This document shows positions 3,001 through 6,000 of a stretch of 37,422 nucleotides of DNA, piece after piece. The stretch is from Candidatus Micrarchaeia archaeon. Lineage in GTDB: Archaea > Micrarchaeota > Micrarchaeia > Micrarchaeales > CABMGC01. Position numbers: made by a program. Each line of letters opens with the position of its first letter. Position 1 is the first letter of the stretch. The DNA lies in contig JBMFIM010000008.1 of the NCBI GenBank assembly GCA_049976305.1, positions 1-37,422 of the forward strand, read 5' to 3'.

Positions 3001-6000
3001 CAAAAGGGATCTTCAGAGTTCACCAGTTCGACAAGATAGAGCAGTTCATATTCTCCCGAGCAGACGACTCTTGGCAATACTTCGATGAGCTAGTCAGAAA
3101 TGAGGAAGAGATGTTCCAGAAGCTTGGCATTCCCTACCATGTAATAGAAATATGCACAGGCGACATAGGAATAGTTGCTGCGAAGAAGAATGACGTTGAA
3201 GGTTGGTTCCCTAGCCAGGGGCAATACAGGGAGCTAACTTCTGCTTCTAACTGCACAGACTGGCAGTCCATGAGGCTTGACATAAAATATGATGAAGGAA
3301 ACGAGAGGAAATACGTGCACACGCTCAATGCTACTGGCATAGCAATCGAAAGGGCGCTGGCTGCTATAGTAGAGAACTATTACAACGATGACGGCACGAT
3401 TACAGTGCCAGAAGTTCTTGTTCCTTACATGGGCAAGCGAAAGATAGGCTAAGAAATGATCTTATGAAGGAGGAGTACGATTTGCTAAAAGAAGTAAAGA
3501 GGCTAAAGTCGATAAGAGGAAATGGAACTGAGCTGATAAGCATCTACATACCGGCTGGATTCCAGCTCAGCGACGAGATAGCTAGGCTGAGGCAAGAATA
3601 CAACCAATCTGGAAACATAAAGTCAAAGACAACAAGGACAAATGTGCAAAGCGCAATAGACAAGATAATACAATACCTTAAACTTTTCAAGGAAACTCCG
3701 AAAAATGGCTTGGCTGTTTTCTGCGGGAACATCTCACCGGTAGAGGGCAAGGAGGATATAGAGCTCTTTTCAATGGAGCCTCCTGAGCCTATTAAGGTGA
3801 ATATCTACCGATGCGACTCCACATTCTTGCTCGACCCCATAGAGGCCATGCTAGAAACCAGAGATGTTTTCGTGCTCCTAGTCATGGATGGGAGGGAAGC
3901 AACCATAGCAACGCTGAGAGGCTCGCACATTCAGGTCATTACGAAAATCCATTCGATGGCGCATGCAAAGATGAAAAAAGGGGGCCAAAGCGCAAGGAGA
4001 TTTGCTAGGGCTAGGGAGGAAGATATAGAATTTTACTATACTGAAATAGCTGAAGCAATAAACGACCTGTTTGAGCGTAATGACTTCAAGTTCAATGGCC
4101 TTATTGTCGGAGGCCCAGGGCCTGCAAAAGAGAACTTTCTTAAGGCGAACAAGCTTAACTATCAAATAAAAGTGCTAGGAGTCTTTGACACCGGCTATAC
4201 TGATGAGTATGGGCTCAATGAACTTGTTGAAAAGGCTTACGACATACTCAAAGAACAGGAGGCAGCAAAGGAAAGACAGGTAATAGAGAGATTCATAAGA
4301 GAAATATCTAGCAACGGCCTGGCAGTTTATGGCTATGCAAACACCAAGAAGGCCCTGCAAGCAGGCAACGTTGCAACGCTAATTGTAAGCAAAGATCTCG
4401 AATTCTACATAGCACACAGAAAATGCAACAAGTGTGGCGCAGAGGTGGATCTTGAGATTGTGCAGCGTGCAAACGAGTCAGATGCAGAATTTGAAAGAAG
4501 AAAGCAGGAAATACTTGAAAACGAGGACCCTCCAGAGACCAGGCTGCACAAAGGGTGTGGCGGGTTTTTTGAAACTGTGTCGATGAAGGATGCGGTGGAG
4601 GAGCTCATAGACCTTGCTGACAAAATAGGAGCTGAGACTGTTTTTGTATCTTCTGAAAGCTCATACGGTAAGGAGTTCCTGATGGGCTTCACAGGCATAG
4701 GTGCAATACTCCGCTACAAATGAGCCAACGCTTCCTTCCCTTTGTACGCAAGTAATTTATTTCTATGTGGTCCAAGTATTAGGATTCCGAGGGGGCTTTG
4801 GAAAAATTAAGCAATATTATTTAAATAGGGGAGCCCAAATATGGGGGAAGGCGTAATGCTTATAAAAGGGTGAAAAAATGTCGGCGAATCTTACAAAAAC
4901 CGAACTGAAAACATTGTCGAAGATCCTAGAAGAGGGGGAGGAAGTAATTGCAGTTGGCAGGCAGCACAGGCTTACAAAGCTCATTGCGCCTGCAATGACA
5001 TTAGCAACGGACAAGCGGCTTATAATAATGAAAAGGGATGTGCTTGGAATAAGGTCCGATATGCACTTCATACCTTACGAGCACATAGTAAGCTTTAGGC
5101 TTGTACATGGCTTTGTCTTTTCGTCAATAAAGCTGAGACTTCTCGGAGCGTCAAAGCCCAATGAGCATGCAGTTACAAGCTTAGAAGAGGATGAAACCGA
5201 AATAAATGGCCTGACAAGGGGCGCGGCAAGAATACTAGCAGGAAAGCTTAGCGCAAACATACACGAAAGACTAAACAGAAAAGATTCTGGAGAAACCATA
5301 GTCCACCACACAACGCCAGTAGTCAACATATTCGTAATGGGTAATGGTTACAGTGCTGCCCCAAGGCTCTATCTGCCAAATATACTTGAAGCAGGACATA
5401 ATGCAGTAATGAATGACTACGCAGTTCCGTTTGCTACAGAATATGCTTATGAAGATACAGCAATGGAGCAGAGTACAAGCGTGGAGGAAGAAACAGACGG
5501 TGAAGTGGCCTATGCTATCGAAAAGCCAGAAAGTGAAGAAGGCCACAAAGGCGAAGCCAAGTCAGCAAATTCGAACGCTGCATTGATAGAAATAAAAAGA
5601 ACTGAAAGCAAAGAAGAGCAGAACGAAAAGAAAGGAGAAAAGCCGGAGCATGCCCAGCATAACCAGCAAACAGAAGCGCAACCGCAGACCCAGACCCGTG
5701 CAGTAAGACCTGAAGACCTTCAAATTTTCAAAAAGCGTCTCCACAGGAATCCGATAGGGGAACTCACCTTCTTGCACAGGCTATTCTTCAGCAAGCAGCA
5801 GGATAAAGATGACTTCCTCGAAGGCATTGAAGGCAAGTACTTCGGCGGCTACTGAATGTCGCCGTTTTCTCTTATTTTTTCGTCTTCGTAAGGGGCTACT
5901 TTCCTTCTATAAAATTCCTGCTTCACTGATTCCAACACGCCAATTGCACGGTTGTAGTTGAAATACCTAGGGCTGTAAAGGCTCCAAAGTAGCTTTGTTA

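Follow-up and report, generated by a model that had tools for sequence, protein, structure and literature searches.

The window, by which we mean the whole stretch of 37,422 nucleotides that was analysed, carries an intact gene for the archaeal release factor aRF1, the partner that normally recruits ABCE1 (table 1). The encoded protein retains a C-terminal motif of the GAILRY type, and about 20 aa are inserted in its zinc mini-domain, a feature absent from most genomes of the order Micrarchaeales, to which the earlier note assigns the window genome (the match spans 1257 nt, as against about 1190 nt). The gene for aPelota, which is kept in the window genome as well as in 8/8 other genomes of the order, lies outside the window at C3:49196-50242 and scores 196 bits on TIGR00111 (cut-off 178); scores above the cut-offs thus confirm the places that the earlier note had given for both factors. 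A second GTPase resembling EF-1alpha lies directly behind a CysD gene (9307-10095; 314 against a cut-off of 195 on the CysD model), for which reason we reject it as an Hbs1-like factor or a replacement for ABCE1. Together the two genes, at 8079-10095 on the reverse strand, give this small DPANN genome a CysD/CysN-like pair for sulfate adenylyltransferase.

Table 1. Features of the window, with their positions, strands and distinguishing evidence.
Feature	Position	Strand	Remarks
aRF1 release factor, intact, 419 aa	3464..4723	+	NIKS and GGQ motifs; TIGR03676 434 bits (cut-off 235)
Second EF-1alpha-like GTPase, CysN-like	8079..9284	-	CysN and EF-1alpha models both below cut-off
Single-NBD ABC-2 transporter ATPase, false ABCE1 match	16325..17209	+	Permease gene after it, 17214-18002
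SufB- and SufD-type genes	21154..23633	+	PF01458 in both ORFs; Fe-S cluster assembly kept
SufC-like single-NBD ATPase, false ABCE1 match	23638..24366	+	Two SufBD genes precede

No ABCE1 was found in the window genome (723 kb in 34 contigs, completeness 93.7%). The ABCE1 model NF009945 gives a best E value of 1e-23 with an alignment that spans one NBD only, and a profile of 34 ABCE1 ORFs from the class, run against the six-frame ORFs of at least 50 aa, returned no twin-NBD ABCE1; its matches are four single-NBD ATPases, SMC/Rad50, and ferredoxins or small Fe-S proteins. Three of the four ATPases adjoin a permease gene, and the fourth sits after two SufBD genes. Since these matches are transporter ATPases or SufC, we reject the idea that ABCE1 survives in split form or as a single-NBD remnant, and equally reject as such a remnant the ABC gene beside pelota in genome G115, which encodes a DrrA-type transporter ATPase. 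A failure of Fe-S assembly is rejected as the cause too: genes for SufBCD, NifU-like and NUBPL proteins are present, as are Fe-S proteins, and consequently an inability to build the clusters of ABCE1 does not explain its loss.

The same absence is seen throughout the order. In a class sample of 301 Micrarchaeia genomes with completeness of at least 80%, ABCE1 was detected at E<=1e-28 in 0/107 genomes of the order (families f1 and f2 plus the window genome) versus 168/194 genomes of other orders, while aRF1, the positive control in the same genomes, was recovered in 95/107 and 190/194, respectively. A search with a 13-row alignment that included divergent ABCE1 forms of the class (E<=1e-27, five candidates scored per genome) found ABCE1 in 0/248 genomes of the order, or 0/86 of the high-quality ones, and five single-contig genomes with all candidates scored gave no ABCE1 and a best E value of 1.7e-24, limited to one NBD. 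Two unpublished genomes, G082 and G267, are counted in some of these tallies, and no claim depends on either alone. Among the order genomes searched, no gene combined an N-terminal 2x[4Fe-4S] domain with two NBDs and a hinge. By coordinates, ABCE1 lies less than 4 kb from pelota in 15 of the 19 sampled genomes with the canonical protein; within 3 kb of pelota, eight genomes of the order have no ABCE1-like ORF, and a DedA/VTT membrane gene is found near pelota in 7/8. The deletion of ABCE1 dates to the order's ancestor. The evidence supports a true and robust lineage loss and not an assembly gap, as the earlier note had argued, because single-contig genomes lack the gene and aRF1 is found in most of the same sample; with the loss confirmed, ribosome recycling in the order must indeed take another route.

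This loss is not wholly unrecorded; it is latent in two supplementary tables. In the available parts of PMC5498576 (supplementary files 4-6), arCOG00187, or Rli1, stands at 0 for Mia14, a closed genome, and also for AR5, AR10 and AR20; it is present in 11/15 DPANN genomes, with an ancestral probability of 0.998, and both Nanoarchaeum equitans and Nst1 are non-zero. Among the rows annotated 'translation' in file 4, as far as that source is available, Rli1 is the sole zero for Mia14. Dataset S7 of PMC12892359, a source likewise available in part, has Rli1 at 0 in 93 of its last 96 columns, a run that begins at the Micrarchaeales genome after the last Redboyarchaeum column, with the order label checked for three columns, three cells non-zero and a KO label of the row that also names smc. 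There are also 15 consecutive zeros, 14 of these columns being listed as Zaosheniarchaeales, and Redboyarchaeum, the most reduced lineage in that dataset, is non-zero in nearly all its columns, on which ground we reject small genome size as the cause of the loss. Word searches of the available main texts returned no 'RLI' in PMC5498576 and neither 'ABCE' nor 'translation' in PMC12892359; the supplements of PMC7414124, with possibly partial coverage, contained no match, and a literature on ABCE1 in Micrarchaeota or DPANN that leaves most subscription papers outside its coverage contained no statement of the loss. How far the loss extends, its independent repeats, the deletion in 16S, the loss of aIF6 and the HLH-less ABCE1 clade, all presented below, were not found in the available parts of PMC5498576 and PMC12892359, and the 16S and aIF6 correlates are new.

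Nor is the loss limited to the order. Family f5 has ABCE1 in 0/9 genomes with all candidates scored, the only genome of its sister family having the gene, and family f24 in 0/3; ABCE1 is also missing from single or scattered genera of f8, f11, f16, f18 and f26, which are represented by fewer genomes and of which some cases are perhaps gaps. In a midpoint-rooted FastTree phylogeny built on subunits of RNA polymerase, with 51 rows and 1605 columns and with G032 left out for want of a match, four lineages occupy separate branches, namely the order, f5, f24 and the group of f3/f8/f11/f14/f16/f26, f24 being nested in a clade of ABCE1 holders with support 1.0. It follows from these separate branches that ABCE1 was lost at least three times, independently in at least two families of Micrarchaeia besides the order. 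A second RpoA' in G039 (L140, G039:C41), given a tip of its own in the tree, clusters with the window's order and is probably a bin contamination.

Within the f3/f8/f11/f14/f16/f26 group, eight sampled ABCE1 proteins have no HLH insert in NBD1, the element that the available part of PMC7196836 names as a main anchor of ABCE1 to 16S rRNA. They form a long-branch clade (support 100) separate from the canonical ABCE1 copies of the same group, and one ABCE1 of f18 is also short at this insert. Among the matches listed, close relatives of the HLH-less form come only from records titled Micrarchaeota and from one other archaeon. Its genes (L039-L043, L125-L127) are not linked to pelota, and they coexist with canonical copies and with losses in one group, which may reflect either paralogy or replacement. 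Family f15 has a different arrangement again, with ABCE1 no more than about 10 kb away from the gene for 16S and not beside pelota (G089:C37, G184:C76, G290:C29, G061:C48, G210:C52, G127:C14, G252:C14, G190:C1). The repeated independent losses and the HLH-less clade, taken together, suggest that a bypass of ABCE1 is easy to reach.

The earlier note had further reported that HflX is missing. The absence holds (PF13167: 0/30 genomes of the order, controls 14/14), but it is no part of the order's loss, since other orders score 0/91 as well; with 0/121 in the class, HflX was gone long before. The available table of PMC5498576 (Golyshina 2017) correspondingly has HflX at 0 in all 15 DPANN genomes. 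RRF (PF01765) was found in 0/5 genomes tested, with 10 bacterial controls above cut-off. Pfam scans of the window genome, comprising 722 of 766 crudely called ORFs and 36 window ORFs, 145 of them rescanned at a looser threshold, revealed no RRF, IF3, HflX or twin-NBD ABC protein, and no replacement for ABCE1 was found in this inventory. The factors that are present include aEF1alpha, aEF2 (a single copy of ordinary length, 730 aa), aIF5B, the three subunits of aIF2, aIF1, aIF1A, aIF5A, DRG, YchF, Pth2 and RqcH, together with an SBDS that, in this genome, is a full three-domain protein. RqcH is encoded as two genes, both in the window genome (L083:2561-3652; L098:12230-13153) and in 5/5 other genomes of the class that were tested. 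Divergent to the gene for the C-terminal half lies that of a 390-aa CBS protein (L098:13231-14400), the best PDB match of which covers the CBS part only (chain 9sr9_H, 392 aa, E 1e-18); it is possibly a hibernation factor of the HibA type. Also present in the window genome are genes for Ku together with an ATP-dependent ligase, as well as a cluster for AMP salvage that contains RuBisCO (L097:432-2190 and L089:12277-15975).

A second deletion is peculiar to the window's genus. aIF6 (PF01912) is present in 39/42 genomes of the order, and all three misses fall in this genus, where the count is 0/6. In four other genomes of the order aIF6 ends the S19e-PDCD5 operon, standing directly after L31e in the three that have an L31e match; in the window genome and 4/4 of its relatives in the genus the operon is unbroken, and directly behind L31e stands an unrelated gene of 562 aa (G000:C10:19300-20830, L099/L100; L504-L507). 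The gene was cleanly deleted from the ribosomal operon in this genus, and an assembly gap is rejected as the reason for its absence from the window genome, given that the operon is intact and the same in the relatives. aIF6 is essential in Haloferax; its absence here implies that the 50S trap is dispensable in the window's genus. On the reading proposed below, this genus would have the smallest recycling set known to us among cells with archaeal ribosomes.

The ribosome itself is altered in the order. A variable-gap pattern for 16S rRNA found matches in 131/301 genomes of the class, and a short form with a 2-nt deletion is present in 78/78 genes of the order versus 0/52 others, the order's figure referring to members other than the window's genus, which has no 16S match, just as the window genome has no assembled 16S. 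One match of the short form from beyond the order (G116) falls within a protein gene and so was removed before this count. According to the Rfam alignment, the deletion affects the linker between h4 and h5, beside the h5-h15 junction, and lies 4-6 nt upstream of A51, which is itself retained, as is the h14 loop. In the available parts of PMC7196836, A51-U353 constitutes the h5-h15 junction that NBD1 and the HLH of ABCE1 face, with A51 as the base which they monitor, while the Fe-S domain occupies a pocket formed by this junction, h44 and uS12. The deletion adjoins the docking junction of ABCE1, and a contact of the deleted bases with ABCE1 would be putative. Two genomes of f2 have, in addition, compensatory changes atop h44, from a U.U pair to C-G (L331, L333, L330, at the 16S 3' end); G098 has one such change and G110 none. 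The decoding site and bridge B2a are presumably close to the changed pair. All four 16S genes of the order that were read also have a flipped pair in the h14 stem.

The last conserved residues of aPelota are altered as well. A C-terminal leucine is found in 25/25 ABCE1 holders and in 16/16 other genomes without ABCE1, as compared with 0/9 proteins of the order (G075, with a split protein, was left out); domain C is the most diverged part of the protein in the order (29% versus 36-38%), where both aRF1 and aPelota are more diverged in general than elsewhere. The ABCE1-less lineages outside the order keep the long form of 16S (f5 4/4; genus g61 of f8 3/3), and because they keep the linker as well as the pelota motif, neither change is required for the loss of ABCE1. 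The 16S deletion marks this order only and, as a single evolutionary event, it cannot be proven to be linked to that loss. Elsewhere at the contact sites, the Q and H residues of uS12 that touch ABCE1 are invariant in all groups and the site on eS6 is variable in all groups; no clear signal of coevolution with the loss came from uS12, eS6 or the C domain of aRF1.

These results raise an obvious question: How are ribosomes recycled in cells that have kept aRF1 and aPelota and dispensed with ABCE1? We infer that no new dedicated ATPase took the place of ABCE1. The most economical route, and our best guess at a rough probability of 0.45, is that the post-termination 70S would be labile, would dissociate slowly and would then be captured by initiation factors. 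In such a scheme aRF1 would free the peptide, or aPelota would enter the stalled ribosome, and the factor would stay wedged in the A site; the putatively labile 70S would then fall apart unaided with aRF1 or aPelota still bound, and its subunits would be kept from rejoining by aIF1 and aIF1A on the 30S and, where it is kept, by aIF6 on the 50S. Slow recycling may be tolerable in a slow-growing symbiont. Once ABCE1 no longer docked, the h4-h5 linker of 16S could have lost its two nucleotides and aPelota its last conserved residues, although the causal tie of these changes to the loss of ABCE1 is one that we infer from one evolutionary event. Free subunits are presumably still produced, given that leadered initiation continues and that RqcH and, for the most part, aIF6 work on them; indeed, the factors acting on split subunits are kept, namely both halves of RqcH, Pth2, aIF1, aIF1A and mostly aIF6. 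Archaea are not known to have eIF3, so the splitting of 80S ribosomes by that factor can be only a partial precedent for a labile 70S. It is documented at low Mg2+ in the available part of PMC5972666, and another precedent is found in the available part of PMC6124641, where the 70S of S. solfataricus is intrinsically unstable; against lability, the same source has the 70S of T. celer not split in vitro without ABCE1 or aRF1.

The main rival of this self-dissociation is unlikely, and would have aEF2 with aSBDS (or else aEF1alpha with aPelota) actively split post-termination ribosomes in the manner of bacterial EF-G and RRF. SBDS presumably resembles RRF in structure, the window genome keeps the full protein despite having lost aIF6, on which the eukaryotic counterpart of SBDS acts, and a use of universal parts would explain the repeated loss of ABCE1; on the other side, the window genome has only the one EF-2, of ordinary length. 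The position in which aSBDS has been seen on the archaeal 70S, across the PTC, uS12 and the stalk, would suit such a role, but the source, in the part available, takes this bound state as protective (PMC13324472).

An unrecognised, lineage-specific splitting factor among the unannotated genes is improbable. Many of the 722 ORFs scanned in the window genome have no Pfam family, and two AAA ATPases of 973 and 505 aa are without clear assignment; however, the unnamed genes that recur beside aRF1 or pelota seem unrelated to translation, encoding a histone-fold protein, a glycosyltransferase and DedA, and at least three separate losses would demand separate inventions or transfers. Two unnamed neighbours of aRF1 and pelota were rejected as splitting factors, their ESM Atlas matches being weak only, in one case to PA14-like proteins.

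That ABCE1 protein is obtained from the archaeal host via cell contact we regard as distinctly improbable. Cultured members depend on Thermoplasmatales hosts, in sources available in part, and ABCE1 is active across archaeal species in vitro according to the available part of PMC6124641. Nevertheless, the 16S is changed beside the docking junction in every order gene found, which is unexpected if a foreign ABCE1 must bind there, and Rli1 is retained by Redboyarchaeum (PMC12892359), Nanoarchaeum equitans and Nst1 (PMC5498576) in the tables available.

It is very improbable that ribosomes are rarely split at all, the intact 70S starting anew at coupled genes further downstream or at leaderless mRNA. 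Depletion of Rli1 in yeast leads to 80S re-initiation (available part of PMC5972666), and the window genome has many overlapping gene pairs (70/422) as well as a TATA-like peak near -29 in its first-in-operon genes. Yet overlapping stop/start pairs are not enriched (12/117 in the order and 9/83 in other ABCE1-less genomes versus 35/214 in holders, from 20-40 kb per genome with crude gene calls), a sharp Shine-Dalgarno signal of the GGTGAT type persists at -9 to -4 over all ATG-starting genes of the window genome, the 16S anti-SD tail persists in the order, and aIF6 and RqcH are mostly kept. The TGA within GGTGAT is often an apparent upstream stop, as in 27 pairs spaced exactly 4 nt.

Finally, an artefact, whereby ABCE1 would be present but diverged past detection or missed by assembly, is largely excluded: MAGs are incomplete, the window genome misses its 16S gene and the search of 248 genomes scored five candidates each, but ABCE1 forms at about 33% identity are still detected at E ~1e-130, the exhaustively scored single-contig genomes have no ABCE1, and the zeros for closed Mia14 (PMC5498576) and in 93 of the last 96 columns (PMC12892359) point the same way in the parts available.

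Whether by self-dissociation or by an aEF2/aSBDS motor, the order probably possesses a third kind of recycling that uses neither RRF nor ABCE1 and works on a ribosome whose ABCE1 docking site has been remodelled, and in the window's genus it would operate without aIF6 too. ABCE1 has been thought indispensable for the splitting of ribosomes in archaea and eukaryotes, and here a whole order of tiny symbiotic archaea is without it. Its absence from 248 species-level genomes, its independent losses and the aIF6-less genus together indicate that the archaeal ribosome can cycle without the known splitter. Since members of the order grow in co-culture, recycling without ABCE1 or RRF becomes testable, and the 16S deletion, being a single defined change, could be introduced into a model archaeon. 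Recycling of this kind also bears on the state of LUCA.

Compared with recycling by ABCE1/Rli1, as described in the available parts of PMC7196836 and PMC6124641, the order shares aRF1, aPelota, aEF1alpha, the P stalk, uS12, eS6 and eS24, and differs in having no ATPase, a 16S h4-h5 linker that is 2 nt shorter, an aPelota without its C-terminal LR(F/Y) motif and, in one genus, no aIF6. Bacterial recycling by RRF with EF-G, or by HflX, is likewise free of ABCE1, and the EF-2 of the order could fill the role of EF-G; unlike bacteria, however, the order has no RRF in the five genomes tested, no IF3 in the window-genome inventory and no HflX in any of the 121 class genomes. Extremely reduced bacterial endosymbionts lose core translation factors, and there too a 'universal' factor has been dropped by a host-dependent cell. 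The members of Micrarchaeales differ from them in being ectosymbionts, with genomes of 0.5-1.3 Mb and a factor set that is otherwise near-complete, and in having more reduced relatives that keep the ABCE1 gene.
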